A stretch of DNA of 64,000 bases from the IMG/VR virus record IMGVR_UViG_3300023070_000001, positions 1-64,000 of that record. One strand, written 5' to 3'. A program made the translations under genes and the position numbers. The stretch is from a virus (lineage: Duplodnaviria; Caudoviricetes). Of this stretch, positions 338 through 25,684 are shown piece after piece (within the stretch, counting starts at the first letter, position 1; every line of letters starts with the position of its first letter). The notes beneath the pieces are model-generated. The model was not told the DNA's origin, searched no databases, and saw only the letters and a list, made by a program, of their open reading frames with translations.

Positions 338-1121
338 TTACTTTCTCCAAAGGAATTAGCTTATTTCGTTTTGCCATGTGAATACTCATATAATTATGAG
401 GTGCCATGAACTCACGGAAGTTAGTAACAATAAATCGAGCTGACCTACCCTTAGTTAGAGAGGTAATAGTTTTCTTCAATGCCAGCTTGTAAGCCAGTCC
501 AGCAGAGAACTTGTAGTTTGTAGGAATCATCCAACGCTCTAGAGCAGTTGCACAGATTTCCTCACGAAACAGTAGTACCTGCTGCTCAAAGGTAAGACCA
601 TTCCATAGCTTATCAGGATCAATATCTACTGTTTCGCCATCCTTGAGGATTAGTTCATACAGAGGATGGTCGCCATAAGCAACACTATCATGGATGGAGT
701 CGTGATCATAGATACGCACCACAGCATCCTTGAAGAACATACCAGCAGCCTGCGCTAGATTCATCTTCTTGGAGCCGTGCTTCTCAATCCAGACCTTGTA
801 AAGAAGCTTATGTAGCTCAAGGTCTAGAACAGCACCACGATCCTGTAGGAATAGGATATCGCACATGTGCTTATCCCAGGAACCATTCTTCAATTCCCAG
901 TAGGCATGAGATACCTTAATAGTGTAAAGCTCATCGAGAGTAGCGAAACCATTACGGTCTAGCTGCGTACCAGCAAAACTTTCATGCCAGAAATCATCAC
1001 TAGATTCTGGATAGAATCCCATTTCAGGATGAGGGCGAGCAAATACATCAAGGTCTTTAGGTTCACGAACTTCATTAGGAAATAGTCTGTGCATGGCTGT
1101 AGAGCCAATGATCAGTGCCAT
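330..1121 (-). CDS. Pol-beta superfamily nucleotidyltransferase-like phage protein
   Basis: N-terminal hhGS-x13-DLD motif (IIGSTAMHRLFPNEVREPKDLDVF); 263 aa. Confidence 0.6.
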   Translation of the reverse strand: MALIIGSTAMHRLFPNEVREPKDLDVFARPHPEMGFYPESSDDFWHESFAGTQLDRNGFATLDELYTIKVSHAYWELKNGSWDKHMCDILFLQDRGAVLDLELHKLLYKVWIEKHGSKKMNLAQAAGMFFKDAVVRIYDHDSIHDSVAYGDHPLYELILKDGETVDIDPDKLWNGLTFEQQVLLFREEICATALERWMIPTNYKFSAGLAYKLALKKTITSLTKGRSARFIVTNFREFMAPHNYMSIHMAKRNKLIPLEKVNG

Positions 1122-1441
1122 CTAGAATCCTCAACTCTAGTTAGTCGTAAATACAATCCATAAGTTTCATAGCCTTTTAGGAATCCTTGCACGACCCAAG
1201 TACTCATAACATGACCATGAGGACCGCAATTAGTATTAACTAGTTTGCTAGTTGCATAATTTAGTGTTTTACCTGTGCACATAACTCCCGAATACCTTAC
1301 ACCACGATAATTATCTAGCCAGCGATTGAACTCAGCCAAATCTAAAATAGTTTTAAGATACTCTATACTGTAGCCACTAAGGCAATTAGGTGGTGGAGAG
1401 ATCACAAGTAGTTTACCTGGGGAATGAAAATTATAACTCAT
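1112..1441 (-). CDS. hypothetical protein starting 1 nt after the tRNA-Ser discriminator
   Basis: 109-aa ORF, ATG at N73-C-ATG, 3' end overlaps the next gene. Confidence 0.5.
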   Translation of the reverse strand: MSYNFHSPGKLLVISPPPNCLSGYSIEYLKTILDLAEFNRWLDNYRGVRYSGVMCTGKTLNYATSKLVNTNCGPHGHVMSTWVVQGFLKGYETYGLYLRLTRVEDSRWH

Positions 1442-1442
1442 G

Positions 1443-1525
1443 CGGAAGGTAAAGGAGTCGAACCCTCAGGTGTTACCCTGGCCCGGTTTTCAAGACCGGT
1501 TGCGTACCTCTACGCGCTACCCTCC
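1443..1525 (-). tRNA. tRNA-Ser(TGA), long variable arm
   Basis: GGAGGGT/ACCTTCC acceptor, CT-TGA-AA loop, GGTTCGACTCC T-arm, G73. Confidence 0.9.
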
Positions 1526-1554
1526 ATAATGCCCGAAGGCATCCTTACATTATA

Positions 1555-1758
1555 TCAGTTTTCCCAGCTTAGTACAAGCTTGGGGTCTCCGTCAAGTGAT
1601 GTCATCAGATTATAGGCAATCTTGTTGAAGTTCACTTGATCAATCTGTAGCATCTGCTCTGGATCAGAAGTACCATAATCCAGTAGTGCTTCATCCATGT
1701 CTACATCATAGTATCCACGTAGTGTTACATGCATACGACGAATAGCCATGTCATCCAA
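1555..1758 (-). CDS. hypothetical protein
   Basis: 67-aa ORF on the coding strand, coupled to the upstream ORF. Confidence 0.55.
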   Translation of the reverse strand: MDDMAIRRMHVTLRGYYDVDMDEALLDYGTSDPEQMLQIDQVNFNKIAYNLMTSLDGDPKLVLSWEN

Positions 1759-1879
1759 ACCAGTTATCTAGATGAAGTACTACATAAATCAGAGCCCAGA
1801 TAATAACACCCCAGATACCCAGACCTAGTAGAACTCCTGCAATCCAGAACTTACCGAAATGCTTAAAAATAAAATCCAT
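1751..1879 (-). CDS. 42-aa single-pass membrane protein (MDFIFKHFGKFWIAGVLLGLGIWGVIIWALIYVVLHLDNWFG)
   Basis: Hand-translated; one hydrophobic helix; stop/start overlaps at both ends. Confidence 0.6.
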   Translation of the reverse strand: MDFIFKHFGKFWIAGVLLGLGIWGVIIWALIYVVLHLDNWFG

Positions 1880-2271
1880 TATCGAACCTCTACCTCAGGA
1901 ATAATTACAGAGGGCTTGAAGACAACCTTATAGTGGTTGGGGCTGACACCAGAGGTACCAAGCTGCTCATACCACCACAGTACGTTATCTGACTTACCAA
2001 GAGCATTTCGCTTATACTCGTTACCAACCTTGCAGGTAACAGTCATACGATTAGCATCACCAGGATCAACTGAGCAGAATCCCTCAACAGTCATGATGTA
2101 CTTGTCAAGGATAGCGTTATAAAACACTACTCGACGGTTAACCTTAAAGTTATCTGCGTCCTTGTTCAAATTCTCATTAACAACATCTGCATCATCAGTA
2201 GTACAGGCTGTCATACCAAAGCTGGCACCAATGAGAAGGACAGCAGCAATAGCCTTAAACTTATTACGCAT
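1879..2271 (-). CDS. lipoprotein of a widespread phage family
   Basis: Signal peptide II with lipobox GMTAC; NENLNKDADNFKVNRRVVFYN motif; start moved to MRNKF. Confidence 0.75.
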   Translation of the reverse strand: MRNKFKAIAAVLLIGASFGMTACTTDDADVVNENLNKDADNFKVNRRVVFYNAILDKYIMTVEGFCSVDPGDANRMTVTCKVGNEYKRNALGKSDNVLWWYEQLGTSGVSPNHYKVVFKPSVIIPEVEVR

Positions 2272-2413
2272 TACGAACCTCTTCATCATAATCACAAACT
2301 TCACAAGGATATTCTTGAGACACCTTTTTTTGCGTTACAGGACAATTAGTTTTGCCATATTTACAGCCGTGATCGACACAGCAATGTGTTGCGTGTACTC
2401 TATCGTTTTCCAT
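2264..2413 (-). CDS. 49-aa Cys-rich microprotein (HCCVDHGCKYG..CPV..CEVC)
   Basis: Hand-translated; ATG 1 nt after the tRNA-Ile(TAT) discriminator; 6 Cys and 3 His. Confidence 0.65.
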   Translation of the reverse strand: MENDRVHATHCCVDHGCKYGKTNCPVTQKKVSQEYPCEVCDYDEEVRNA

Positions 2414-2414
2414 G

Positions 2415-2496
2415 TACGAGCCGTGGGACTTGAACCCACCTGGACCAACTACGGCATTATAATCCCCCGCTTATAAGACGGGACCGGTACACTCGC
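2415..2496 (-). tRNA. atypical tRNA-Ile(TAT): no D-arm, extended variable arm
   Basis: CCCGT-CT-TAT-AA-GCGGG anticodon arm, GTGGG-TTCAAGT-CCCAC T-arm, GCGAGT/GCTCGT acceptor, only 7 nt where the D-arm should be. Confidence 0.65.
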
Positions 2497-2500
2497 CTGT

Positions 2501-2573
2501 TAAGGCCAAGGTCTCGAACCTTGCTTTATTCTCTCACCCTACCATGGATTCTAGGTGTCAGTCTAGCGGCCTA
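2501..2573 (-). pseudogene. degenerate tRNA-like sequence (only the T-arm is recognisable)
   Basis: CAAGG-TTCGAGA-CCTTG T-arm, imperfect acceptor, no clear anticodon loop. Confidence 0.3.
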
Positions 2574-2618
2574 CTATCCTGAACGAAAGTATCACCCCAG
2601 TCGGTGCCTTCAAGAACT

Positions 2619-2647
2619 ACTCTAGCAGAGTCACCAGCTACCGTCAA
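2619..2647 (-). promoter_or_regulatory. sigma70/HrdB-type promoter TTGACG-N17-TAGAGT
   Basis: Matches the recurrent promoter consensus. Confidence 0.7.
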
Positions 2648-3249
2648 TACCTGTTGACCTGGGTATTTCCATCGCCAAACTGGATTCCACGGGAGTGTGA
2701 GACTTTTACAGTTCTAGCTAACTCATAATCCATTAGCCATTCATGCATTTCTCTTTCAACCTTAGCATTTGCCAGAGCATGATGAATAGGCTGATCTGCA
2801 CTACGTAGATCAGGAATACGAACATCTAGCCTTTGAGCCTCTTGTCTAATATCATTAGTCCACATAGGAATAGTCTCAGGTAGATTAGCCATTGAGCCGA
2901 AGAGTTGCCCTAGGCATACATGGTCATAACCAGAGTACCAACCCCACAATTGCAGGGGCTTGTTATCTCGGCCTTGCGCATCAGTAAGAAACTCATGAAC
3001 CTTCATGCGAATAGATAGGGTACTTCTAACAATATTATTTCCAACACCACTGACAATAGCAGCATTATGCTTAGCGGATAGCTTAGGTACTACATTTGCT
3101 ACTAGCCATTCATGCTTAAGGATTCTACCCCAAGGTGCATCAATAAATTCATAATAAAGCTCATAACCATCATCTGTTACCATACCTACAGAGAGAGGAT
3201 GAACACTATTACCACTCTCTAGAAATTCCCAGTCATGATAAACCTTCAA
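2644..3249 (-). CDS. DEDD 3'-5' exoribonuclease (Rv2179c/DUF5051-like)
   Basis: YHDWEFLE ExoI motif, SVGMV..DG.ELY, YDHV.L.QLFG, HHAL.NA. Confidence 0.8.
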   Translation of the reverse strand: MKVYHDWEFLESGNSVHPLSVGMVTDDGYELYYEFIDAPWGRILKHEWLVANVVPKLSAKHNAAIVSGVGNNIVRSTLSIRMKVHEFLTDAQGRDNKPLQLWGWYSGYDHVCLGQLFGSMANLPETIPMWTNDIRQEAQRLDVRIPDLRSADQPIHHALANAKVEREMHEWLMDYELARTVKVSHSRGIQFGDGNTQVNRY

Positions 3250-3288
3250 TTTACTCTCCTAATTAATACTCACATTAGCAATAATGCG

Positions 3289-3313
3289 GAAAAGGGAGCC
3301 CGAAGACTCCCTT
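3289..3313 (-). terminator. intrinsic terminator
   Basis: GGGAG-TCTTCGGG-CTCCC followed by TTTT on the minus strand. Confidence 0.65.
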
Positions 3314-3317
3314 TCGT

Positions 3318-3776
3318 TTATCCGCCTGACTTTCCCCCGCCAGATCCTCCACCAGCCTTACCACCTGCTGATCCAACCTTAGCGCTAGATCCAGGACCGC
3401 CCTTACCGATTACGCCAGTCTTAACTGTACCGTTTGAAATCTTACCAGTAGAGGGAAGCCCAAACTTAGTTCGACTAGCTTTATCTGTCACAGAGAACTT
3501 GTGCCCCGCAGCAGGTAGTCTTGATCCTGTAGCATAGTTTCCATTAGATCCATGAACTGATGTGCCACCAATCCAAATGAATGTACCTGGATTGTAATTG
3601 CTAGAGGTTTCATCACAATAAGATTCATCGATAACTACACCCTCTGCATTTGAACAATACGCATGTCCATCCTCATTAGGATCTTCGGCAGTATCACATG
3701 CCATCAATGCTCCACTAACAAGAGCTAGAGTTAGAGCACTAGTACCAACTCGGCGCGACATCATGCGTCGGGTCAT
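3318..3776 (-). CDS. lipoprotein with Gly/Lys-rich tail
   Basis: Lipobox ALMAC; C-terminal GGKAGGGSGGGKSGG. Confidence 0.75.
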   Translation of the reverse strand: MTRRMMSRRVGTSALTLALVSGALMACDTAEDPNEDGHAYCSNAEGVVIDESYCDETSSNYNPGTFIWIGGTSVHGSNGNYATGSRLPAAGHKFSVTDKASRTKFGLPSTGKISNGTVKTGVIGKGGPGSSAKVGSAGGKAGGGSGGGKSGG

Positions 3777-3840
3777 CTGGACCGATCGCCCTTTCTGTGT
3801 TTGTCTATTGCTATGAGCCTACCAGCAGTACCTTAAGATG

Positions 3841-4419
3841 TCAAGAGACCTTAATAGGTGTCTCCCCATAAGCCTTAGCACATGTAGTCCCCATTACAGG
3901 ACCAGTACGTACAACATAGTTATTAGCTGGATACTTGATTACCTTATGAATACCTGTGTGAAACTCAGCACACCAATTAGAGCGTGCTCTTGCATCAGAT
4001 GGAGCATTCTTTCCATCGATCCACATATCGTATTGAGGATAACCTGGCTCATCAACATTAGTATGACATGGACCATTCTCAGGGTGAGGGCCATCACCAC
4101 AAGTATCCTCTACAATGAAATACTTCTGAAGAGATACCATATAGAACTTAACTCCAGGAGCAATATCAATTACATCATTTCCTGATGCCATAGAATGTCC
4201 TACTGCTAGAGTAATAGGATCATTAAAGGTACCTGTTCCTGCTGCCTGAGTGTGGATTACAGGATGAGAGATAGCTGCTGTACCAGGAGGTGTATTATCC
4301 CAGTAAGTATAGCCTGTTAGATAAGCATAATGTGTATACTCTGCTGCCTGAGCTGGCCCTGCAAACCCCAGAACTGCTACCATCAAAGATAGAATGGCTA
4401 CTGCTATAATTCTTTTCAT
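3841..4419 (-). CDS. secreted 3D/double-psi-beta-barrel-like protein (possible cell-wall-active enzyme)
   Basis: Sec signal peptide MKRIIAVAILS...PAQA; GTGTFNDPITLA and KYFIVEDTCG motifs; start moved from 4524 because a terminator lies in the extension. Confidence 0.55.
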   Translation of the reverse strand: MKRIIAVAILSLMVAVLGFAGPAQAAEYTHYAYLTGYTYWDNTPPGTAAISHPVIHTQAAGTGTFNDPITLAVGHSMASGNDVIDIAPGVKFYMVSLQKYFIVEDTCGDGPHPENGPCHTNVDEPGYPQYDMWIDGKNAPSDARARSNWCAEFHTGIHKVIKYPANNYVVRTGPVMGTTCAKAYGETPIKVS

Positions 4420-4440
4420 ATTTAACTCCCTAACGCAGAA

Positions 4441-4464
4441 AAGGCACACCAATTGGTGTGCCTT
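4441..4464 (-). terminator. perfect palindrome, terminator-like
   Basis: AAGGCACACC-AATT-GGTGTGCCTT followed by TTCT on the minus strand. Confidence 0.6.
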
Positions 4465-4468
4465 GCTT

Positions 4469-4600
4469 TCAAACTTTCTTTTGCTTAGCCTTCTTTTCAG
4501 CATCAAGAACGCTTTTACCATCACCCTTTTTGGTCTTAGCGCCCTTATGCTCAGGCTTGGACCTCATTTGAGGATCATCTGGGTCTTTATAATCAGACAT
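4469..4600 (-). CDS. 43-aa Lys-rich microprotein (MSDYKDPDDPQMRSKPEHKGAK...)
   Basis: Hand-translated; purine-rich RBS region upstream; ends just before the terminator. Confidence 0.5.
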   Translation of the reverse strand: MSDYKDPDDPQMRSKPEHKGAKTKKGDGKSVLDAEKKAKQKKV

Positions 4601-4632
4601 TTATATCCTTTGGTTAGTTTACAAAGTTTTGA

Positions 4633-4712
4633 ATAGGGAGGGCGAGTCTCTTGCACGACTCCGGGATCACCAGGCTTCCAGAATTACAGCAGAATTGAAC
4701 TGCTCCCTCTAT
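4633..4712 (-). ncRNA. candidate tRNA-like ncRNA with T-arm preceding D-arm
   Basis: AGCAG-TTCAATT-CTGCT, then GGA-AGCCTGGTGA-TCC, then GAGTC/GACTC hairpin, closed by GAGGG/CCCTC. Confidence 0.4.
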
Positions 4713-4836
4713 GTGACCCTACCTTTTTCAGTCAAGCACTGAGATAGTCAATTGTGTAGCCACGCAGGACTGCACTCTCAACACTCTAAAGCTGGTTAGG
4801 CATATAGAGCAAGGTTACCACCCTTGTACCTCTCTG

Positions 4837-4906
4837 TGCCCCAGGAAAGAGTCGAACTTTCATGCTACTGCTTTACAGGCAGCGCCACATACCCATGCTC
4901 TGAGGC
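4837..4906 (-). tRNA. tRNA-Tyr(GTA), short variable loop
   Basis: GCCTCAG/CTGGGGC acceptor, CT-GTA-AA loop, T-loop TTCGACT. Confidence 0.75.
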
Positions 4907-4942
4907 TTACACCAGATAGGCTCTGGCTGGCCTTGTTACTAT

Positions 4943-4971
4943 AGACTAGCAGTTGTTATCTTGCCTGTCAA
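4943..4971 (-). promoter_or_regulatory. promoter TTGACA-N17-TAGTCT
   Basis: Consensus match upstream of tRNA-Tyr. Confidence 0.75.
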
Positions 4972-4975
4972 GTAC

Positions 4976-5398
4976 TTACTTGCGCTTTGCAGTGACAGGC
5001 TTAGGAGCTACAGGCTTAACTTTGATAATCTTAGGTGCAGGCTTAGCAGGAACAGCCTTAGGTGCAGAATTAACTTTAGCCTTTTCAGCCTTCTTGGGCT
5101 TCTTAGCCTTCTTGTGAGAACCGCCAGATTCCTCACCCTCCTCCTCATCCTGGAGCTGCACTCCTACAGGAGGCTCCCAGTTATCAGGAGAGTGAGATAC
5201 CTGACCCTGCTGAACCCAACTGTACCAAATCCACTGGTTGCTATCGTCCAGGTAGCCGCAATCAGAGTCATGCTCGATCTGATCGCCCTTATCACACTCA
5301 AGGTCATAGTTGGAGTTAGACTTATCACCACAACCTGTCAGAGTACCGGCCATCATAGCAGCACCCAAAGTGATTGCAGCCAGCTTACGGAAGTTCAT
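4976..5398 (-). CDS. lipoprotein with acidic linker and Pro/Lys-rich tail
   Basis: Lipobox TLTGC; C-terminal PKAVPAKPAPK...KRK. Confidence 0.75.
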   Translation of the reverse strand: MNFRKLAAITLGAAMMAGTLTGCGDKSNSNYDLECDKGDQIEHDSDCGYLDDSNQWIWYSWVQQGQVSHSPDNWEPPVGVQLQDEEEGEESGGSHKKAKKPKKAEKAKVNSAPKAVPAKPAPKIIKVKPVAPKPVTAKRK

Positions 5399-5438
5399 AG
5401 ATATCCTTCAACTAGAGTTTGTCTTGCTGATGTGAACT

Positions 5439-5467
5439 AGCTTAGCGGACCTAAGCCCTACTGTCAA
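5439..5467 (-). promoter_or_regulatory. promoter TTGACA-N17-TAAGCT
   Basis: Consensus match. Confidence 0.75.
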
Positions 5468-5586
5468 CTGTGAGGTGGGACAGGTTTGTTAGGGTGTCCA
5501 CCGATCTTGGCAATACTCTTGTGGCAGCGAGGGCATTGGGTCTGCTTATGTGTCTTAACCCATGATTTCCCTGAACCTGGGCACAT
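5464..5586 (-). CDS. 40-aa zinc-finger microprotein (MCPGSG...CPRC...PPH)
   Basis: Hand-translated; CPGSG/CPxC/PxH pattern typical of small actinophage proteins. Confidence 0.55.
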   Translation of the reverse strand: MCPGSGKSWVKTHKQTQCPRCHKSIAKIGGHPNKPVPPHS

Positions 5587-5602
5587 CTTACTTCAACCCC
5601 TT

Positions 5603-11069: not shown

Positions 11070-11156
11070 TTACCTACAACCTAGTGGACAACTGCTCCCA
11101 TTATATAACCTACCACATTTAAGGCAGATATTCTGTCCTCGTACATAAATTATCAA
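11070..11156 (-). CDS. 28-aa Cys-rich microprotein after tRNA-His (TTG start)
   Basis: Hand-translated ICLKCGRLYNGSSCPLGC; start at N73-C-TTG. Confidence 0.45.
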   Translation of the reverse strand: MIIYVRGQNICLKCGRLYNGSSCPLGCR

Positions 11157-11157
11157 G

Positions 11158-11229
11158 GGTGATCGAGGGGAATTGAACCCCCGTATTCCGAGTCACAGTC
11201 GGACGCTCTACCATTGAGCTACGAACACC
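11158..11229 (-). tRNA. tRNA-His(GTG), G-1 encoded, C73
   Basis: Canonical cloverleaf. Confidence 0.92.
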
Positions 11230-11455: not shown

Positions 11456-11665
11456 TTAACCTTCGCCATCACTTAGTGGCACAAAGTCTTTATCGCCTAC
11501 CATAATCATATCGAAATTAGTACCGCGCCAACGAATATGGTATTTCTTCTTAAACCCGCCTTCAATTTTAGTAATTGTACCTCGGGTATTGGGCCTAAGG
11601 TGGGTTGTGTGAAAAGAAATCCTCTTACGGAGTCGAACTTCATCGCCTTCATCATACTTTGCCAT
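11456..11665 (-). CDS. small beta-barrel (SH3-like) hypothetical protein
   Basis: 69 aa; ATG 1 nt after the tRNA-Pro discriminator. Confidence 0.65.
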   Translation of the reverse strand: MAKYDEGDEVRLRKRISFHTTHLRPNTRGTITKIEGGFKKKYHIRWRGTNFDMIMVGDKDFVPLSDGEG

Positions 11666-11666
11666 G

Positions 11667-11738
11667 TCGAATGCCTGAGAATCGAACTCAGTTTATCTTG
11701 CTCCCAAAGCAAGCGGATTACCATCTTCCTCGCACTCG
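11667..11738 (-). tRNA. tRNA-Pro(TGG), second copy
   Basis: CGAGTGC/GCATTCG acceptor, TT-TGG-GA loop. Confidence 0.85.
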
Positions 11739-12155: not shown

Positions 12156-12323
12156 TTAGCACTTCCCTGGTTTATGTAGAGCAATACATTTACGACAGTT
12201 TACCTCTTCAATACCGTCAATGTATCGCAAACATATATCACCATCAGCAAATATAGCTGAACGGAAAAGCCCACACTTGGATTTATGCTTTGTACCGAAT
12301 TTTCCGCCATGTATAATTCTCAT
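12156..12323 (-). CDS. 55-aa His/Cys microprotein (IH..CG...VNCRKC)
   Basis: Hand-translated; paralog-like to 48-191 and 188-337. Confidence 0.55.
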   Translation of the reverse strand: MRIIHGGKFGTKHKSKCGLFRSAIFADGDICLRYIDGIEEVNCRKCIALHKPGKC

Positions 12324-12460
12324 TAGCGAACCTTTGCGCTACAGAAACAAATGCAGGGTTTCTTTTCTGTACGTGAAATACAAGCTTCACGTGGATGGGT
12401 ATCATTAGTACAAGGCCAGCAAACTGTAACCTTTTCCTTTTTCTTCTTTTTAAATCCCAT
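12323..12460 (-). CDS. 45-aa Cys-rich basic microprotein
   Basis: Hand-translated CWPC...H...C...CICFC; ATG directly after the closing stem of the 12462-12589 RNA. Confidence 0.55.
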   Translation of the reverse strand: MGFKKKKKEKVTVCWPCTNDTHPREACISRTEKKPCICFCSAKVR

Positions 12461-12461
12461 G

Positions 12462-12589
12462 CGTGAGTGCGGCGCTACGAATATCCGCTTCTGCTACTCT
12501 CTTTCGCCTACTAGGTTCGGGCCTGCCTGTAACGGCCAGCCCTACTACGATCAGCTCCGATTTCGCTATGTTACTATACACTAACTCAC
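12462..12589 (-). ncRNA. candidate tRNA-framed structured RNA (~128 nt)
   Basis: GTGAGT/ACTCAC closing stem, TA-GTGT-ATAGTA-ACAT D-like arm, internal hairpins, GCGG/CCGC arm with TTCGTAG loop. Confidence 0.4.
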
Positions 12590-13921: not shown

Positions 13922-14110
13922 TTAAATATCAAATTCCCCAGCTTTAACGCCTGCAATAAAAGCTTTCCACTCATCTTCAGTGAAAAGTACTTTAACATCA
14001 GGAGCGAGGTTGTTTCGAACAGCAATCCAAATAGGATTAGTTTCCAAAACAGTTACCTCAACACAGGCGTTAGTACCGCAGTAGCTTGATTTTACCCAAG
14101 TTGTATTCAA
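13922..14110 (-). CDS. DUF397 family protein (BldB-like actinomycete family)
   Basis: WVKSSYC..NACVEV...AVRN...L.FT.DEW.AFIAGVK. Confidence 0.9.
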   Translation of the reverse strand: MNTTWVKSSYCGTNACVEVTVLETNPIWIAVRNNLAPDVKVLFTEDEWKAFIAGVKAGEFDI

Positions 14111-14200
14111 CTATGACCTCTCAATAAGCCACTTAGCAGCCAAAGTTATCAGAATAGCTACTCCGATAGCTATTGGAATCGAAATTATAAATTCCCACAT
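14111..14200 (-). CDS. 29-aa transmembrane peptide after tRNA-Glu
   Basis: Hand-translated MWEFIISIPIAIGVAILITLAAKWLIERS; N73-C-ATG. Confidence 0.55.
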   Translation of the reverse strand: MWEFIISIPIAIGVAILITLAAKWLIERS

Positions 14201-14201
14201 G

Positions 14202-14275
14202 TAGAGCGAATGGGATTCGAACCCACATTTTCCAGATTGAAAGTCTGGCATCCTAAACCATTAGACGACCGCTCC
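14202..14275 (-). tRNA. tRNA-Glu(TTC)
   Basis: Canonical cloverleaf. Confidence 0.92.
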
Positions 14276-16488: not shown

Positions 16489-16637
16489 TACGATTCATAT
16501 TCCTTAATGGCATCTCTAAGTTCTTTAAGTACACTATCAGGTACTTGTTTCCCTTTCAGCCTTTTTTCTTTCCTAGCTTTTGCTACAGCAGCATCAGCGT
16601 CTTGCACTCTTTTCAGAGTATTAGCATTTTTGGGCAA
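16488..16637 (-). CDS. 49-aa helical microprotein (paralog A, TTG start)
   Basis: Hand-translated; aligns with 16315-16488. Confidence 0.6.
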   Translation of the reverse strand: MPKNANTLKRVQDADAAVAKARKEKRLKGKQVPDSVLKELRDAIKEYES

Positions 16638-16747
16638 AATAATTCTTTCTATTTTCAAAAATGATATGGTTGAGGAACCGACGATCAGGCGTCAGACTTC
16701 TGTCCCGTAAGGGCAGTGTTCTGTCTACTCTTAAACTATTCCCCAAG

Positions 16748-17268: not shown

Positions 17269-17296
17269 TTGAATTACTCCTATGTCAGTTAAATAC

Positions 17297-17325
17297 AGGG
17301 GTATGAGATGCGACCTCATACCCCT
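17297..17325 (-). terminator. hairpin after tRNA-Leu
   Basis: 11-bp AGGGGTATGAG/CTCATACCCCT stem. Confidence 0.55.
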
Positions 17326-17328
17326 AAG

Positions 17329-17409
17329 TGCTCGTAACAGGAGTCGAACCTGCATACCTCTCGGCGTCACGTTCTAAGCGTGATGTGTATTCCGTTCCAC
17401 CATACGAGC
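17329..17409 (-). tRNA. tRNA-Leu(TAG), long variable arm
   Basis: Class II cloverleaf. Confidence 0.92.
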
Positions 17410-19425: not shown

Positions 19426-19542
19426 GGTTCCTCTTCTTTCTTAGTATATTTATTAAACAGTTCTTGAAGCTCTTCATAAAGTTTCTGAACTTTATCCTTA
19501 TCTTCATCAGATAAGTTATCCCAATCTAGTACACCATCATCA

Positions 19543-19899: not shown

Positions 19900-20206
19900 C
19901 CATCCAGTGCATCTTATGCGTTACGCCTTCAGAAATCTCTGAGACCTTAATAAGTTCTACCAGCTCTGTAAGAAACATCGGATAGCATAAGCCAGTATCC
20001 ACATCTTTAAACCTGACTGCACTAGGCGCTAACCAACCATCCAATTTTAGCTTAGCGAGGAATGGAGTATTAGCTCTCCACTCTTCAGGTACTGCCCAGC
20101 GATGAACAGACTTCATCAAATCGCCAGCTTCATTGTAAGGAACTTTGAAATTACCCTTTGGCATTCTACTTAACCTCTTGGTGACATAGTGGGCATTGCC
20201 CTGCAT
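19838..20206 (-). CDS. hypothetical protein
   Basis: ORF in an operon. Confidence 0.6.
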   Translation of the reverse strand: MQGNAHYVTKRLSRMPKGNFKVPYNEAGDLMKSVHRWAVPEEWRANTPFLAKLKLDGWLAPSAVRFKDVDTGLCYPMFLTELVELIKVSEISEGVTHKMHWMVVKKYQDYGIRLAESNEIQG

Positions 20207-21104
20207 TAGTTAATAGTTTGTGTAGTTCGGTTTCGATATCTGATATGGCATGATCTAGAGTATTTATTTGATCGACTAACTCTTGAATCTTCTTTGTAGC
20301 TAGGATAGCAGACTTTAGGGCAGCTTTAAAGCCTCTGAGTTGATCCTGCACCTCTACTAGCTCAGACATACTAGGAGGCTCTGGAATTATTCTAACCTTG
20401 CTGAGGGCATCTGAGGCTTGTTGTGCCCTATCTACAGAGCTAGCTAGGTTGAGTTGCCAAGCATTGATATCTGAAAGTTCCTCCCAGATATCCTCTACCT
20501 CAGTCATCGTGCTAGCCTGAGCTTTAATATCTGTATATTCAACAATCTGCTTCATTACTGCTTCCTGGTCCTTCTTACGCAGGTTCAGTAATGTAGATGC
20601 TGCCTTTGCTTTCTTACTAGCTTTACTAACTGCTGCAAAGATAGTAGAGACATTTGTCAATTCCCCTAGAATCCTTGCAGCATTGCTAGATGTCTCAGTC
20701 AATAGATAAGGTGCATCATGTTGACTAGCGAAACTTATCGACTTTACTTCTTTTGTGCTCGGCGGGATACCAAGAACTTCTGTAACTTGGGAAGGTACTT
20801 GACGATTAAGCTTAGTAAAGCTGGATTCTTTGCTACCAATCTCAGTAATCTTGTAAACACTAGATCCTCCTACGCTTCTTTCAATAGTTACTGTAGCATT
20901 ATCTGTGGTAACCGCTACAGATGCATGTTTAGTTCCTTGCATTATATTATCGGAGTTCAATGAATTACTAGCGATGGCCTCGATAGCTCTGATTAAAGCT
21001 GACTTTCCACTACTAGATGCACCGACAATTACAGTAAACTTTCCCAGTTCAATTTCTACATCTTGTAGACTCTGGAAATTCTTACATGATATAGAGTGAA
21101 TCAC
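20166..21104 (-). CDS. SbcC/Rad50-like ATPase, N-terminal half with zinc hook
   Basis: KNFQS, Walker A GASSSGKS, Q-loop FASQHD, coiled coil, terminal CPLC; no signature or Walker B motif. Confidence 0.8.
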   Translation of the reverse strand: MIHSISCKNFQSLQDVEIELGKFTVIVGASSSGKSALIRAIEAIASNSLNSDNIMQGTKHASVAVTTDNATVTIERSVGGSSVYKITEIGSKESSFTKLNRQVPSQVTEVLGIPPSTKEVKSISFASQHDAPYLLTETSSNAARILGELTNVSTIFAAVSKASKKAKAASTLLNLRKKDQEAVMKQIVEYTDIKAQASTMTEVEDIWEELSDINAWQLNLASSVDRAQQASDALSKVRIIPEPPSMSELVEVQDQLRGFKAALKSAILATKKIQELVDQINTLDHAISDIETELHKLLTNAGQCPLCHQEVK

Positions 21105-21164
21105 TAATCCTCCATACGCTAAGAGCCACCGAACCCTGTTCAGGCTGGTGGCTCTAGTATAGCA

Positions 21165-21347
21165 TCATTTTGCTATGATGTAACCCTTGCCCTCGCAAGG
21201 TCCACAATCTACAGCAACAAATTTATCAGAAGACTTAATAAACTTAACGTCTTTAAGTTTAGCCCTTGGAACTAAAATCTTTCCATCTTTACATGCTAAG
21301 CACGTAACTCTGGAACCCTTTAAGGGTTTAGGATACTTACTACTCAT
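21165..21347 (-). CDS. DnaJ-type CxxCxGxG zinc-finger microprotein
   Basis: CLACKDGK...CGPCEGKG. Confidence 0.65.
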   Translation of the reverse strand: MSSKYPKPLKGSRVTCLACKDGKILVPRAKLKDVKFIKSSDKFVAVDCGPCEGKGYIIAK

Positions 21348-21355
21348 TTAATTCC

Positions 21356-21652
21356 TCAGACTACGAAGTATCGTTTACCCTTACAGCCCTTGCAAGTATC
21401 TTTAACTGCAAGTTCACCTGTCTTCTTGTTAGCAGGTCTGACAAGAACAATACCCTTACCTTTACAGCCAGCACAAGTGATTTTATCACCCTTTTTAACT
21501 GTAGGGTATTTATCTTTCTTAACTCGCTGAACTGCATTTGCAGTGTTTACGCCAGGACGCTTGACCCTAGCAATAATATCATAGCAATCCTTACATCGTA
21601 GATTATCTTGCGCATCTACAAACATGTTAAGGCCGTGCTTTTTACACTCCAT
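21356..21652 (-). CDS. zinc-finger protein with CxxCxGxG repeats
   Basis: CKKH..CKDC; CAGCKGKG...CKGCKGK. Confidence 0.65.
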   Translation of the reverse strand: MECKKHGLNMFVDAQDNLRCKDCYDIIARVKRPGVNTANAVQRVKKDKYPTVKKGDKITCAGCKGKGIVLVRPANKKTGELAVKDTCKGCKGKRYFVV

Positions 21653-21770
21653 TATTTTTAGGTTTTCCCTTAATATGATTTGGAGTTAGGGCTCTACCAC
21701 AGTGATAACATCGAGTAATACCCTTAGTAATAATTATTCTTTCGCCATGTTGTTCACATTTTTTAGGCAC
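21642..21770 (-). CDS. 42-aa zinc-binding microprotein after tRNA-Arg (GTG start)
   Basis: MPKKCEQHG...RCYHCG; N73-C-GTG. Confidence 0.6.
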   Translation of the reverse strand: MPKKCEQHGERIIITKGITRCYHCGRALTPNHIKGKPKNNGV

Positions 21771-21771
21771 G

Positions 21772-21844
21772 TGCCCCAGGAGGGATTCGAACCCCCAACC
21801 TGACGGGTAGAAACCGCCTGCTCTATCCATTGAGCTACTGAGGC
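21772..21844 (-). tRNA. tRNA-Arg(TCT)
   Basis: Canonical cloverleaf. Confidence 0.92.
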
Positions 21845-21992
21845 ATTAGTTAACAGGGTGCCAGCCCTGCTTTTACCATTACGGTCCCCAAGGTCTCCCG
21901 ACCCTGAATAACGAATGCTGGCACATAAGTTTTTGGCCAACCGTACTTGCTAGTTCCATACATACGGGAAGTATACTAGCACCCCACCTGCG

Positions 21993-22068
21993 TGATCCAT
22001 GTAGGATTTGAACCTACGCACTTCGGATTAAAAGTCCGCTGCTCTATACCAGACTGAGCTAATGGATC
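21993..22068 (-). tRNA. tRNA-Lys(TTT)
   Basis: Canonical cloverleaf. Confidence 0.92.
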
Positions 22069-22139
22069 ATTAAATGAAATTGTTGGGAAAGGCTATGCCC
22101 TTTATTCCAAGGGGATGTCTATGCCCATACAATTTCAAG

Positions 22140-22214
22140 TGGTTCATCTCGGATTCGAACCGAGGATCTTCGGATTAAGAGGCCGCTGCTTTAGCCAGGC
22201 TAAGCTAATGAACC
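22140..22214 (-). tRNA. tRNA-Lys(CTT)
   Basis: Canonical cloverleaf. Confidence 0.9.
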
Positions 22215-22282
22215 ATACATGATTTATCCATCACCAACTTAGGGTGGCACCCGCTTTATAATGGATTCGTTCACAGACGAGG

Positions 22283-22359
22283 TGGTGGATCGAGTGGGAT
22301 TCGAACCCACGACCAATGGATTAAGAGTCCACTGCTCTATACCGCTGAGCTACCGATCC
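22283..22359 (-). tRNA. tRNA-Lys(CTT), CCA encoded
   Basis: Canonical cloverleaf ending ACCA. Confidence 0.93.
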
Positions 22360-22375
22360 ATAATTGCCTTTCAAG

Positions 22376-22446
22376 TACCCGGTGACAGAATCGAACTGCC
22401 GTCTGCACGGTGTAAACGTGCGGCCCTCCCATTAGACGAACCGGGC
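22376..22446 (-). tRNA. tRNA-Val(TAC)
   Basis: Canonical cloverleaf. Confidence 0.9.
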
Positions 22447-22691
22447 TTGGTGCCGTGGAAATTTTCAGATCAGCAAGAGCTTAAGTTAACTGACCCTATA
22501 TTCTAGACCGCATTATCGTTACCCACAGCTATAACAATCTAGAAGCTTAGCATAAATCGTAACACGGACTCCCACCGTTAGTCTAGCACACTTTCCCAGA
22601 TCCAAGATTTATGTATGTTAGAGTACATCTAGCACATTAGCATTTAATTAGCGCCCACATGGACAAGTAACTTACTGTGTACTCTAAATCT

Positions 22692-22809
22692 GTAAGAGTA
22701 AAGTGAAAGGAATTGAACCTTTCCAGCGGGTGCCCCCAATTTGGCTTAGCCTTAGTACCATACCTAAGCAGGAATCGAACCTGTTACTGCCATTTACTTC
22801 ACTCTTTAC
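22692..22809 (-). ncRNA. candidate RNA with two T-arms
   Basis: CAGG-TTCGATT-CCTG and GAAAGG-TTCAATT-CCTTTC inside a long closing stem. Confidence 0.5.
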
Positions 22810-22810
22810 G

Positions 22811-22883
22811 TGGAACCGGACGGATTCGAACCGTCATCCTCCTGATTGCAAAACAGGCGCTCTACCGTTGGAGCTACGATCCC
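22811..22883 (-). tRNA. tRNA-Ala(TGC)
   Basis: G3-U70, canonical cloverleaf. Confidence 0.92.
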
Positions 22884-22951
22884 ATAATGTAAGTGGGCCG
22901 TCACCGCCAGGTGTCTGAGCTATGTACTCAGGAACATCACTTACATCTACT

Positions 22952-22980
22952 ACCTTACACCATGTCTTACAGGCTGTCAA
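22952..22980 (-). promoter_or_regulatory. promoter TTGACA-N17-TAAGGT
   Basis: Consensus match. Confidence 0.8.
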
Positions 22981-22988
22981 GTACTTAT

Positions 22989-23198
22989 TTAGTCCTCGTC
23001 AGCCATGTTGTCATCCCAGCACTTACTGTCAACACCCGTAATCAGAAGTTCACGAGTATCAGCGGATAGCCCAGGAAAGGCAACCTGCACAAACTCACCT
23101 GATTTCCACTTGTTAAAGCCATCCTCAGGTAGGTCGATCTTCTTCGACTTACCACAGAACATACACTTCTTAGTGGTGTAGCTTACTGTCTTGGTCAT
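22989..23198 (-). CDS. CxxC-containing conserved phage protein, probably leaderless
   Basis: ATG lies 7 nt downstream of the -10 hexamer; AFP.LSAD.RELLITG motif. Confidence 0.75.
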   Translation of the reverse strand: MTKTVSYTTKKCMFCGKSKKIDLPEDGFNKWKSGEFVQVAFPGLSADTRELLITGVDSKCWDDNMADED

Positions 23199-23204
23199 GT
23201 AAGT

Positions 23205-23233
23205 AGCTTATCCTACTCTGTCAGATTCGTCAA
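23205..23233 (-). promoter_or_regulatory. promoter TTGACG-N17-TAAGCT
   Basis: Consensus match. Confidence 0.75.
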
Positions 23234-23365
23234 GTACTACAGGAGAGTACAGAAACCATCTTTACTCTTGTGACCAGGGCAACCTTGTGCCTTGCATCGA
23301 TACTTGCCCTTGCGGTGTGCTCCACCCTTGGGCTCTTCCCTCTTATCTTTTGCCATGAGATGAGC

Positions 23366-23989
23366 TTACTCTACTGTGGAGCCTTCGTCAACGGGGTAGA
23401 CATCATAAATCTTGAAGTTCTCATGAACCTTGCTAGCGGTAGGGCCGCTCTGGTTTTGGTAGTGCGAGCCAGCAAATCTAGATCCATAAAGAATAGTAGA
23501 TGGCTGAGGTAGCTTGAAAAAGCATAACTGAGCAATCTTCATTCCAGGATACAATAGGATTGGTGTAGTACCGTTATTAGATAATTCTAGTGTAACAGTT
23601 CCCTCAAACCCTGGATCGATAAAGCCAGCAGTCGAGTGAATTTGTAAACCTAATCTACCTAAACTTGACTTACCTTCACACCTTGCAGTTATATTAGCTC
23701 CTAAAGCAATAGCCTCATGAGTTGAAGCGAGAATAAAGCTATCAGGCTTTATCTCAATAGCTGAACCCTTGGGTACGGTAACAGCTTGGAAATGATTAGA
23801 GCTATCTACTTTAGGATCTATTACATCATTGAAGGCTAGGTAATCAGGGTGAGTACGCCTCTGTACTAAAAATTCGCAGCTCAGAGTTACATCATAACTA
23901 GATGGCTGCATTAATTCAGGATGGAAGGGCTCTATGACAATATTGTCAAATCGCTTCTCTTCTAAGATATCTCTATTAGATAATAGCAC
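23366..23989 (-). CDS. dcd: dCTP deaminase
   Basis: QPSSYDVTL, EGKSSLGRLGL, AGFIDPGFEG, TLELSN, Y.G.YQ.Q.GP. Confidence 0.95.
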   Translation of the reverse strand: MLLSNRDILEEKRFDNIVIEPFHPELMQPSSYDVTLSCEFLVQRRTHPDYLAFNDVIDPKVDSSNHFQAVTVPKGSAIEIKPDSFILASTHEAIALGANITARCEGKSSLGRLGLQIHSTAGFIDPGFEGTVTLELSNNGTTPILLYPGMKIAQLCFFKLPQPSTILYGSRFAGSHYQNQSGPTASKVHENFKIYDVYPVDEGSTVE

Positions 23990-24080
23990 TCATGTCTCCC
24001 CATGAAAATAGAGACCTCATCGACAGGCACCATAAAAGGTCTCGGCTAAATACAGCACCCTAGAGCTTGGTCTCTATTTT

Positions 24081-24455
24081 CTATTTAGTATGGCCTGCTT
24101 GAATCATAAGTGTAGCAATATCTTGACCATCTGGCAAGGTTACTGACGCTAATGTTCTTCCCATAGTAAATCCATACGACACAAGAGAAACAATTGTCCC
24201 TTGAGGAATTATTGCTTTCAAGTATGAAGTAGCTAATTTAGAGCGGGCCTTATCCTTAGTCTCAGGAGCGTCATACCACCCGCCATCAGGTAATGTAATT
24301 CTGATAGAGCAGTGACCTGGCTCACCTTCATCTATAGGATAGATCCTAACACCCCAGCCTAAATCTAAATATTCCATAGTGAATGTATCACCATCATGAA
24401 CAGATTTTACTGGACCTACAGCTACACGGACTCGTGTCTTGCGTATTTCTGACAT
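24081..24455 (-). CDS. thermonuclease (SNase-like) family protein
   Basis: VHDGDTF..LDLGW, DAPE, GRTLA motifs. Confidence 0.8.
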   Translation of the reverse strand: MSEIRKTRVRVAVGPVKSVHDGDTFTMEYLDLGWGVRIYPIDEGEPGHCSIRITLPDGGWYDAPETKDKARSKLATSYLKAIIPQGTIVSLVSYGFTMGRTLASVTLPDGQDIATLMIQAGHTK

Positions 24456-24595
24456 AAAAATACTCCCATCTATGTGATAGGAGTATCGGTTAAATATAGT
24501 AGGCAGTCCTGAGAGCATAGCACTCTACCAATCGGGTTTCCTCTACACTTCTGTAAGGGCTTCAGACTTTTCTCTAGTGCTAGACCTACTATAAG

Positions 24596-24675
24596 AGCCC
24601 ATAAGCGGAATCGAACCGCAGACAATTAGACTCGTTTTGCAGACGAGCAGCAGCCACCAGCTACTTTTTATAGGC
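24596..24675 (-). tRNA. tRNA-Cys(GCA), U73, slightly enlarged variable loop
   Basis: CT-GCA-AA loop, GCCTATA/TATGGGC acceptor. Confidence 0.85.
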
Positions 24676-24806
24676 ATTAAAATAAGGCTCCCCCGCTAAC
24701 GGCTGAGCGACGGAAACTTTCAAGGCATTAGCTTATCCGAATTCAGCATATCCTTGACCGCTAGGTTCCCTTATTTAAGATTTACCCTTATCTTGTAATC
24801 ATAAAG

Positions 24807-24881
24807 AGCCGTCAGTGTGGCTCGAACACACTACTCATCGCATACCAAGCGAGGGCTTTAACCTGATTAAGCTACGACGGC
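24807..24881 (-). tRNA. tRNA-Thr(GGT)
   Basis: Canonical cloverleaf. Confidence 0.88.
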
Positions 24882-25074
24882 AAAACCTAAGGATATCTAT
24901 TTGTGTATTTGATATCAATCTGTTAAATAAAACCTACAGAATAACTTAGGTAGTTGTTGCAAAGATTATGGTCTCTGTCCTTAGCAGCTTTGTCAGAGAC
25001 TTGCTGGGGATCGCTATAGCATACATAAGCCCTTCCCCTCCAGCGACATTATCCGGTCTGCATAATCTATTGCG

Positions 25075-25145
25075 AGCGGATAGCCGGGTTCGAACCGGCG
25101 AGAAATGATTGGAAATCACTTATGTTACCACTACATCATATCCGC
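25075..25145 (-). tRNA. tRNA-Gly(TCC)
   Basis: Canonical cloverleaf, U73. Confidence 0.92.
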
Positions 25146-25217
25146 ATAAACGGTTTTTCAGCGGCGTACTAGACGTGGTGGGACTTGCTCCGCTGAGCTG
25201 CAACCGAAAATCTCCCG

Positions 25218-25288
25218 AGCGACATAGGGGAATCGAACCCCTGTATACTGCATGGCAAGCAGTCGCACTACCATTGTGCTAATATCGC
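25218..25288 (-). tRNA. tRNA-Gly(GCC)
   Basis: Canonical cloverleaf, U73. Confidence 0.92.
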
Positions 25289-25293
25289 ATCTT

Positions 25294-25479
25294 TCAATCT
25301 AGCAAAGTGCTAGAGCTTAAAAACATCCAAGCTTTAAATTCATTGCTTGTCATATTGTCTTCATCATGACGACGCTTCAATTCTAAAGCTGAGATACCCA
25401 TTCTGTCAAGCATATCTTTTACCAGAGAATCCCACTCGTCTTGAGTTAACTCAACTACATTAATAGGTTCATTACTCAT
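25294..25479 (-). CDS. hypothetical protein
   Basis: 61-aa ORF coupled to the upstream ORF. Confidence 0.6.
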   Translation of the reverse strand: MSNEPINVVELTQDEWDSLVKDMLDRMGISALELKRRHDEDNMTSNEFKAWMFLSSSTLLD

Positions 25480-25610
25480 ACTGTCCCCATATTTACCTTG
25501 CCTTTATTACACTTAGCATGGCACTTAAGTTCTTTCCATTTTCCAGGTTTTATTTCTTTTTGAATCACACCATAACCTTTACAGGTCTGGCACATTATCC
25601 ACTTGGCCAT
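25476..25610 (-). CDS. 44-aa CxxCxGxG zinc-finger microprotein after tRNA-Asp
   Basis: MAKWIMCQTCKGYG...CHAKCNKG; N73-C-ATG; the longer track ORF runs through the tRNA. Confidence 0.65.
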   Translation of the reverse strand: MAKWIMCQTCKGYGVIQKEIKPGKWKELKCHAKCNKGKVNMGTV

Positions 25611-25611
25611 G

Positions 25612-25684
25612 CGCTCCCGAGGGGAAGTCGAACCCCCACCTGTTGATTGACAATCAACTATGCTAACCTTTACACCACGAAAGC
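25612..25684 (-). tRNA. tRNA-Asp(GTC)
   Basis: Canonical cloverleaf, G73. Confidence 0.9.

Follow-up and report, generated by a model that had tools for sequence, protein, structure and literature searches.

The window analysed here, the first 64 kilobases (kb; 64,000 nucleotides, nt) of a 77.1-kb uncultured viral contig (IMG/VR record IMGVR_UViG_3300023070_000001), has a G+C (GC) content of 43% and every gene on the minus strand, including the 26 transfer RNA (tRNA) genes detected by ARAGORN. At eight places a start codon stands directly after C74, the nucleotide that follows the discriminator base N73 of a tRNA gene, or after its equivalent in a tRNA-like or structured RNA, with a spacing of 0 nt (Table 1); six of these junctions carry ATG, one GTG and one TTG, and each opens a small open reading frame (ORF). 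A sequence-only reading of the window had pointed to this arrangement and had proposed that tRNA 3′ processing generates near-leaderless messenger RNAs (mRNAs) from it. The N73 positions derived from Rfam agree with those of that reading; the N73-C-ATG junctions behind tRNA-Ser, tRNA-Pro, tRNA-Glu(ttc) and tRNA-Asp, the N73-C-GTG behind tRNA-Arg(tct), the N73-C-TTG behind tRNA-His and the structured RNA ending in stem-G-C-ATG were all recovered, and the lengths of the ORFs and their Cys/His-rich or transmembrane character are as it described them. The supposed tRNA-Ile with a UAU anticodon is a partial exception: the ATG does stand directly after N73-C, but the structure counts only as a tRNA-like element, since it has no D arm and is called neither by ARAGORN at default settings nor by Rfam RF00005 (E ≤ 1), with a poor model obtained at relaxed settings only.

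Position C74 is encoded in 26 of the 26 tRNA genes of the window, the full CCA by one only and CC by one; according to the printed 3′ ends, C74 is also templated in 25 of 25 tRNA genes of Microbacterium phage Magritte (L005) and in 11 of 11 of Streptomyces phage Faust (L008). The C before the ATG is, therefore, common to all the tRNAs here and not specific to the junctions. Downstream of the junction ORFs, overlaps with the next gene (ATGA, TAATG or 10–11 nt) are frequent, in line with the coupling that had been suggested; the Ser-adjacent ORF, for instance, overlaps the next gene (330–1121, DUF7275) by 10 nt. The 61-amino-acid (aa) ORF coupled to the Asp-adjacent ORF ends so close to tRNA-Gly(gcc) that the Asp two-gene unit is bracketed by tRNAs, and in the close relative introduced below (piece L001) the Asp-adjacent ORF itself ends with TAA plus 1 nt before tRNA-Gly, i.e., with a tRNA on both sides; in the window, the distance from such a stop to the following tRNA is 5 nt for Gly and Arg(tct) and 7 nt for Leu. 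The Pfam search identified no domain in any of the eight junction ORFs, and the Ser- and Asp-adjacent ORFs have no homologues beyond their own clusters in a set of 5.8 billion proteins. Public gene calls for the Asp-adjacent ORF start at exactly the 25610 ATG.

Table 1. Junction elements, adjacent reading frames and coupled genes in the window (SD, Shine-Dalgarno sequence)
Feature	Coordinates	Strand	Remarks
tRNA-Ser(tga)	1442..1525	-	N73 = 1443, C74 = 1442; ARAGORN
Ser-adjacent ORF, 109 aa	1112..1441	-	ATG directly after C74; no SD
tRNA-like element, UAU anticodon loop	2414..2496	-	acceptor, anticodon and T arms fold; no D arm
tRNA-like-element-adjacent ORF, 49 aa, Cys/His-rich	2264..2413	-	ATG directly after N73-C of the element; absent from the relative; predicted ORF
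tRNA-His(gtg)	11157..11228	-	ARAGORN, Rfam
His-adjacent ORF, 28 aa, zinc-ribbon	11070..11156	-	TTG directly after C74
tRNA-Pro(tgg)	11666..11738	-	ARAGORN, Rfam
Pro-adjacent ORF, 69 aa (MAKYDEGDEV...)	11456..11665	-	ATG directly after C74
Structured RNA, ends stem-G-C before ATG	12461..12589	-	conserved in L006
RNA-adjacent ORF, 45 aa, Cys-rich	12323..12460	-	ATG directly after RNA 12461-12589; stop overlaps next ATG (TAATG)
tRNA-Glu(ttc)	14201..14275	-	ARAGORN, Rfam
Glu-adjacent ORF, 29 aa, hydrophobic	14111..14200	-	ATG directly after C74; window type only
DUF397 gene	13922..14110	-	TTG start with SD (GAGAGG), right behind the 29-aa ORF; PF04149
tRNA-Arg(tct)	21771..21844	-	ARAGORN, Rfam
Arg-adjacent ORF, 42 aa, Cys/His	21642..21770	-	GTG directly after C74; 11-nt overlap with next ORF (21356-21652)
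tRNA-Asp(gtc)	25611..25684	-	ARAGORN, Rfam
Asp-adjacent ORF, 44 aa, CxxCxGxG-type	25476..25610	-	ATG directly after C74; stop overlaps next start (ATGA)
ORF coupled to Asp-adjacent ORF, 61 aa	25294..25479	-	ends 5 nt before tRNA-Gly(gcc) 25217-25288

The coding status of these ORFs can be judged from a relative that is 85–98% identical to the window and was recovered as two pieces, L001 (IMG/VR) and L006 (a metagenome contig). Over the five junction ORFs common to both phages, the differences fall 16, 6 and 51 times on codon positions 1, 2 and 3, respectively (chi-square p = 1e-10), the synonymous changes begin at codons 2–9, and the cysteines are conserved. Synonymous changes outnumber non-synonymous ones in the Ser-adjacent ORF (8 vs. 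3 codon changes, the first at codon 2, behind a junction identical in L006), the Arg-adjacent ORF (12 vs. 5), the Asp-adjacent ORF (12 vs. 6, starting at codon 2) and the ORF behind the structured RNA (10 vs. 6, with 15 of 20 base changes at codon position 3), and the only 2 changes in the His-adjacent ORF of L006 are both synonymous. The comparison of the sequences thus confirms the shared junction ORFs as real genes, judged to be under purifying selection from codon 2, which in turn argues that they are translated. The start position itself is conserved through changes of codon: the window starts the Arg-adjacent ORF with GTG, whereas L001 and contigs of runs X7, X10 and X15 have ATG there. 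The contigs from four runs show the known relative type only, including this 21770 C>T change (GTG to ATG), and no third lineage.

The relative also has flush starts of its own, namely a 69-aa ORF, absent from the window, with ATG directly after tRNA-Glu(ctc)-C, and the DUF397 gene, with GTG directly after C74 of tRNA-Glu(ttc); the latter slot is occupied by different genes, a 29-aa ORF in the window and the DUF397 gene in the relative. At the locus of the tRNA-like element (2414–2496), the relative has a normal tRNA-Ile(tat), with unrelated sequence around it and the adjacent ORF absent; further degenerate tRNA-like pieces, including the T-loop-like GGTTCGAGACC, lie upstream of the element in the window (2500–2640, minus strand), where ARAGORN gives poor models at relaxed thresholds only. 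The RNA at 12461–12589 shows, with respect to L006, a compensatory A-U to G-C change in its closing stem and other changes only in loops or bulges; one compensatory pair and the restriction of the remaining changes to loops support a conserved structured RNA as the likely nature of this sequence. Its folding energy is not unusual (z = −0.2), it has no match in Rfam 15 at E ≤ 1, and nhmmer over the fetched loci identified a copy in L006 only.

The arrangement extends to more distant phages. A HMMER search of 1.84 billion cluster representatives with the Pro-adjacent protein retrieved 17 representatives at E ≤ 1e-3, and the loci of four matches were looked up. In three lineages (L132, L134 and L135-137; 44–47% identity) the homologous gene lies flush behind tRNA-Pro(tgg)-A-C, starting with ATG, GTG and ATG, respectively, behind tRNA-Pro acceptor stems that differ among them. 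The His-adjacent zinc-ribbon gene starts 2 nt after tRNA-His (ATG) in L135, compared with 0 nt (TTG) in the window, and in L134 another ORF begins 3 nt after tRNA-His. When the Pro- and Asp-adjacent ORFs were searched by tblastn in 50,697 phage records, no match was obtained. The sequence-only reading had named a lack of conserved spacing or ORFs in relatives as a result that would speak against it; both the close relative and the Pro homologues of three lineages show the conservation, and the GTG/ATG exchange at Arg together with the ATG/GTG exchange at Pro in the distant relatives places the start exactly after C74. Chance was considered as an explanation of the junctions and was rejected on these comparative data.

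Most ordinary genes of the phage carry an AGGAGG-like SD 4–10 nt upstream of the start. No usable SD was found at any of the eight junction starts, because the bases upstream belong to the acceptor stem and the T arm; even the GGAG of the Asp junction lies just 3 nt upstream and within the stem. The earlier statement that the junction ORFs could have no free SD is, therefore, well founded, and sets them apart from the other genes of the phage. The gaps after tRNAs are bimodal, either 0 nt without an SD or at least 20 nt with an SD (for example, after Trp and Leu-taa). An SD may not be needed if these genes, real as they are, begin by SD-independent internal initiation on a long transcript, e.g., at an accessible A-rich start, in which case the zero spacing would result from compaction and recombination at tRNA borders, and tRNA excision would be irrelevant or harmful. 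In agreement with this alternative, a canonical SD is lacking in about half of the leadered genes of Mycobacterium smegmatis (PMC6448022), the tRNA region is a mosaic between window and relative with insertions and deletions at the tRNA borders, A-rich codons follow several of the starts (Met-Ala-Lys three times), and the 24 sequencing runs listed with this stretch are all leaf-litter or soil DNA contigs, none of them RNA. Nevertheless, base pairing of the acceptor stem ends only 2 nt ahead of the start and leaves the 30S subunit no single-stranded 5′ stretch, the spacing of exactly 0 nt persists among proteins of about 45% identity and where different genes occupy one slot, and the gaps are bimodal; moreover, the tRNAs must be excised in any case, so that the junction is necessarily cut near the start. 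Internal initiation is, on this balance, considered unlikely.

The beginning Met-Ala-Lys (ATG GCN AAR) is found in the Pro-adjacent ORF (11665) and its distant homologues (L132, L134 and L135), in the Asp-adjacent ORF (25610) and in the Arg-adjacent ORF of the relative (L001 9221), and may be a preferred context for initiation at a 5′-terminal start codon.

Leaderless transcripts of the classical type would require a promoter within each tRNA gene, with transcription from the A or G of the start codon, and primary leaderless transcripts are indeed common in actinobacteria (PMC6448022, PMC4681348). A TANNNT −10 box 5–9 nt upstream of the start is absent, however, at seven of the eight junctions; the Ser junction has TACCTT, but only 4 nt upstream, and a scan for sigma-70-like promoters gave no excess over shuffled sequences. 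The upstream sequences are, in addition, constrained T arms and acceptor stems that differ between junctions. Without a −10 box at a working distance at seven of eight, the 5′ end does not appear to come from transcription initiation at the start codon, and the promoter inside the tRNA was rejected as its source; the design differs in this tested feature from the classical actinobacterial leaderless transcript, which we regard as a very improbable explanation of the junctions.

We consider it moderately likely, by analogy with cleavage data from the presumed type of host, that tRNA 3′ processing frees mRNAs with a leader of 0–1 nt that are translated as leaderless. Co-transcription of the tRNAs and the small genes is likely in view of their common strand, the zero spacing and the lack of an internal −10 box. 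The tRNA array would be transcribed as one precursor with the small genes between the tRNAs; RNase P would cut at the tRNA 5′ ends, and an endonuclease at the 3′ ends. The latter cut may fall after N73, by RNase Z or by an actinobacterial RNase E cutting 5′ of C, and would yield C-AUG; alternatively, it may fall after C74, as mapped in Streptomyces coelicolor and Propionibacterium acnes, and the mRNA would start exactly at AUG or GUG. The downstream fragment would then be translated as a leaderless mRNA without SD interaction, the following cistrons often by coupling, and the tRNA gene would act as a cis signal for making a 5′ end fit for translation, much as tRNAs punctuate the transcripts of mitochondria. 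The RNase Z cut giving C-AUG, as put forward in the sequence-only reading, is only one of the two possible cuts, and either product would count as leaderless in actinobacteria. Its further suggestion that the tRNAs act as processing switches for microprotein expression is speculation.

Several data from actinobacteria are relevant to these steps. In S. coelicolor, 53 of the 65 tRNA genes lack CCA, most CCA-encoding tRNAs are cleaved between the two Cs, i.e., after C74, and 264 mRNAs have leaders shorter than 10 nt (PMC4681348); the same cut after C74 occurs in CCA-encoding tRNAs of P. acnes, where the CCA-adding enzyme can complete partial ends (PMC3848588). If the phage precursors were cut between C74 and A75, the presence of C74 in every tRNA gene would be accounted for. 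Of the cleavage sites mapped in M. smegmatis, over 90% have C at +1; in this species, leaders of up to 5 nt (24% of transcripts) count as leaderless, and ATG or GTG suffices for initiation (PMC6448022); purified mycobacterial RNase E cleaves directly on the 5′ side of C (PMC10641625). Leaderless short ORFs are reported in a preprint to stand frequently at the front of polycistronic mRNAs (bioRxiv 10.1101/834739), and the frequent overlap of downstream genes with the junction ORFs fits such a position.

The closest known system, by analogy, is the tRNA punctuation of animal mitochondria, reportedly described by Ojala, Montoya and Attardi in 1981; the geometry is the same and the logic would be the same, whereas the setting and the enzymes differ. 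In both, coding regions abut tRNA genes of the same strand at 0–1 nt without a ribosome-binding leader, and in the phage, too, excision of the tRNA would set the 5′ end of the mRNA and in places its 3′ end, and the mRNAs would be leaderless. The phage is, however, a bacterial virus in which most genes use an SD and in which the arrangement is known from DNA alone; about a quarter of its tRNAs are so used, its units are often polycistronic with coupled downstream genes, and the enzymes would be bacterial RNase P together with RNase E, RNase Z or another endonuclease. Plant mitochondria carry t-elements, and the elements at 2414–2496 and 12461–12589 similarly take the place of a tRNA immediately ahead of a start codon; their likeness to tRNA differs in being partial for the former and only putative for the latter.

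With the leaderless mRNAs of M. smegmatis and M. tuberculosis (PMC6448022), S. coelicolor (PMC4681348) and P. acnes (PMC3848588), the junctions share an AUG or GUG at or a few nt from the presumed 5′ end and the lack of an SD, as well as, according to the preprint cited above (bioRxiv 10.1101/834739), small proteins that are often the first cistron of an operon; the known actinobacterial mRNAs, by contrast, come directly from transcription, start about 7 nt downstream of a −10 box and bear a 5′ triphosphate, whereas the phage 5′ end would be a processed monophosphate. In S. coelicolor and P. acnes (PMC4681348, PMC3848588), the cut that separates C74 from C75 leaves a downstream fragment starting at position 75, the first base of the phage start codons; it was mapped on CCA-encoding host tRNAs only, where it also falls 5′ of a C, and for phage trailers with C74-A75 a cut at this site is putative. 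An endonuclease cut just upstream of AUG makes mRNA leaderless in the case of MazF in Escherichia coli (Vesper et al. 2011, as cited in PMC3848588 and PMC4681348). The likeness lies in a leaderless mRNA made after transcription by a cut just upstream of AUG; MazF is, however, a stress toxin that cuts at ACA, whereas the phage cut would belong to constitutive tRNA maturation. The biological reality of MazF-generated leaderless mRNAs is disputed. MazF-type cleavage was also considered for the junctions themselves and was rejected as a common feature, as ACA is read only at junctions with A73.

The occurrence of the arrangement in other viruses was explored by scanning IMG/VR with a pattern made of a common T loop followed by N11-CATG, which gave at least 80 loci; the tRNAs selected for by the pattern were left out of the counts. 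Among the loci listed, ATG stands at offset 0 behind 23 of the other C74 tRNAs (n = 385), compared with 8.6 on average for offsets 1–29; for an ATG that opens an ORF of at least 40 aa, the corresponding figures are 13 at offset 0 and 2.1 on average at the other offsets. Junction-rich loci among the matches listed are L061 (4 of 8 tRNAs; GC 37%), L023 (3 of 7; GC 29%) and L079 (3 of 4; GC 50%), while L054, L069, L017 and L053 (GC 41–44%) have several junctions each, with some homologous junction ORFs; two junctions are kept between L061 and L082 at 56% and 61% protein identity. Pfam domains found in junction ORFs of several of these contigs include HAD hydrolase, response-regulator receiver, DUF4326, GlcNAc transferase and 2OG oxygenase. 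On these comparisons, the flush-start design has arisen in several lineages, and is not unique to this phage. By contrast, when viral C74 tRNAs were sampled without bias, there was no enrichment at offset 0 (2 of 167), so that the design is lineage-specific rather than a general rule. In Magritte, ATG is at offset 0 in 1 of 25 tRNAs, a chance case that runs into the next tRNA, and in the fetched region of Faust in 0 of 11, where every tRNA is separated by 20 nt or more from the start of an annotated gene. A search of the open-access literature yielded no account of leaderless phage genes punctuated by tRNAs.

As observations on the same set, the unrelated viral contigs with tRNAs running into ATG or GTG (L061, L082, L023, L079, L054, L069, L017, L053 and L160) span a GC content of 29–50%, and some junction genes outside the window are sizeable (a 328-aa GlcNAc transferase, a 218-aa 2OG oxygenase and a 110-aa HAD hydrolase).

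A number of findings weigh against release of the genes by tRNA processing, at least in its simplest form, in addition to the lack of enrichment in the unbiased sample, the purely DNA origin of the runs and the fact that neither the phage nor its host is in culture. The main one is trailer composition. All the tRNAs of the window and the relative share a bias toward C74-N-U76(-G77), with U76 in 65–72% and G77 in 42–48% of cases (65% and 42%, respectively, for the window tRNAs alone), and the bias is also present in tRNAs without a gene behind them; part of the NTG excess thus reflects a processing or trailer motif instead of start codons. The C74 and the U76/G77 bias look like a tRNA 3′-processing signature and fit the cleavage behind C74 that is reported for S. 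coelicolor and P. acnes. The ATGs had been put beyond chance in the sequence-only reading, and with the overall ATG frequency on the coding strand (0.024) they are so, with p = 0.003 for 4 of 26 tRNAs and p = 4e-4 for 5 of 27; with position-specific trailer frequencies, however, about 1.6 ATGs would be expected, so that the count alone is weak evidence and the case rests on the comparison between phages.

It could be argued from this composition that the NTG after C74 is mainly a 3′-trailer or processing motif (C74-N-U76-G77), with ORFs that are partly fortuitous and true starts elsewhere. The TTGs after tRNA-Lys (22138), tRNA-Val (22374) and tRNA-Leu-tag (16746), which were considered as gene starts, point in the same direction: the first two were rejected because they open no gene, and the third because non-synonymous and compensatory stem changes relative to L006 indicate a structured RNA rather than an ORF. 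In the L054/L069 group, too, most trailers are C-A-T, and the ATG often stands just before the next tRNA. The third-position bias and the synonymous changes already from codon 2, the absence of an in-frame alternative start ahead of the conserved residues and the interchange of ATG and GTG at the start are, nevertheless, difficult to reconcile with fortuitous ORFs; a trailer motif accounts for a start codon fitting at this position, not for conserved proteins beginning there, and appears quite improbable as the whole explanation.

Other adverse points concern single junctions or the fate of the transcripts. Processed 5′-monophosphate ends are usually prone to decay. In L133, the homologue of the Pro-adjacent gene has no tRNA before it and a GAGG SD 11 nt upstream, and in L132 the zinc-ribbon gene starts 45 nt after tRNA-His; the arrangement is, therefore, dispensable. 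The TTG of the His-adjacent ORF, the least certain of the junction starts, would be unusual for leaderless initiation, since TTG makes up 3% of the leaderless starts in P. acnes (PMC3848588).

Further structures lie next to tRNAs in this region. The sequence at 16621–16746 (minus strand), directly after tRNA-Leu(tag), starts in a tRNA-like manner (GGGGAATAGTTTAAGAGTAG), has a hairpin with compensatory changes (CTGCCC/GGGACAG vs. CTAACC/GGTTAG in L006), and may be a further tRNA-like RNA that does not decode. A perfect 10-bp hairpin (GGGGTATGAG...CTCATACCCC) at 17290–17327 (minus strand), 5 nt after the tRNA-Leu(tag) at 17328–17409, is probably a terminator or processing stem, and not an ORF opened by the ATG inside it. 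A hairpin of about 70 nt (TTGTATGGGCATAG...CCCTTGGAATAAAGGG; folding z = −3.35) occupies the spacer between two tRNA-Lys genes (22069–22140, minus strand); its copies in the relative (L001 5906–5943 and 8765–8834; L006 5394–5458) are placed after tRNA-Thr, after tRNA-Lys and after the Pro-adjacent ORF, and this recurring hairpin may be a small mobile element or a processing or terminator element.

The gene content of the window includes a family-A DNA polymerase, DnaB, RecA, a sliding clamp and a dCTP deaminase. Megablast against annotated phages revealed no close relative, with matches to tRNA-Glu only. Hints to an actinobacterial host are the DUF397 gene (Pfam PF04149, E = 1.4e-14), the Phage_VG64 and DUF7275 domains in window proteins, a PolA whose closest annotated counterpart is that of Microbacterium phage Magritte (37% identity), and one tRNA-Glu 88% identical to that of Streptomyces phages; from these genes and tRNAs, an actinobacterium is a plausible host and the phage is probably an actinophage, although a GC content of 43% is low for this group and also counts against the processing model. 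Neither a phage-encoded CCA-adding enzyme (PF01743) nor WhiB (PF02467) was found in the 77-kb contig, which is 57% complete. Many of the small proteins between the tRNAs are rich in Cys and His, and DnaJ-type CxxCxGxG zinc-finger motifs are present in two proteins of the tRNA region (21356–21652 and 25476–25610, both on the minus strand), the first of which, of 98 aa, has a sub-threshold match to Pfam DnaJ_CXXCXGXG (E = 9e-5).

In summary, the flush starts are a solid observation and the processing mechanism, drawn by analogy, is plausible. A wider and more tentative proposal, which we hold at slightly less than even weight, is that, in several unrelated lineages of phages, tRNA genes also serve as signals that act in cis on expression: excision by the tRNA-maturation enzymes of the host would stand in for the ribosome-binding site of the following gene as well as for a 5′ end set by a promoter, yielding leaderless mRNAs with an exact 5′-AUG or 5′-GUG while C74 is kept on the tRNA; the output of a set of small, mostly zinc-binding or membrane proteins would be tied to the tRNA-processing capacity of the host, and the elements at 2414–2496 and 12461–12589 would be derivatives kept for punctuation only. 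In practical terms, gene callers and curators tend to miss flush genes or to assign them a wrong start, as in the annotations of Faust, and the tRNA-C-ATG junction could serve as a compact expression part for actinobacteria. If the reading holds, it would account for the templating of C74 without CCA in every tRNA gene of these phages, and leaderless mRNAs would arise through routine RNA processing and not through transcription alone. Confirmed at the RNA level, the arrangement would be the bacterial-virus counterpart of mitochondrial tRNA punctuation, a mode of expression thought peculiar to organelles; it would also mean that tRNA genes serve phages in a second way, a point of relevance to the old question of what large phages need so many tRNA genes for.

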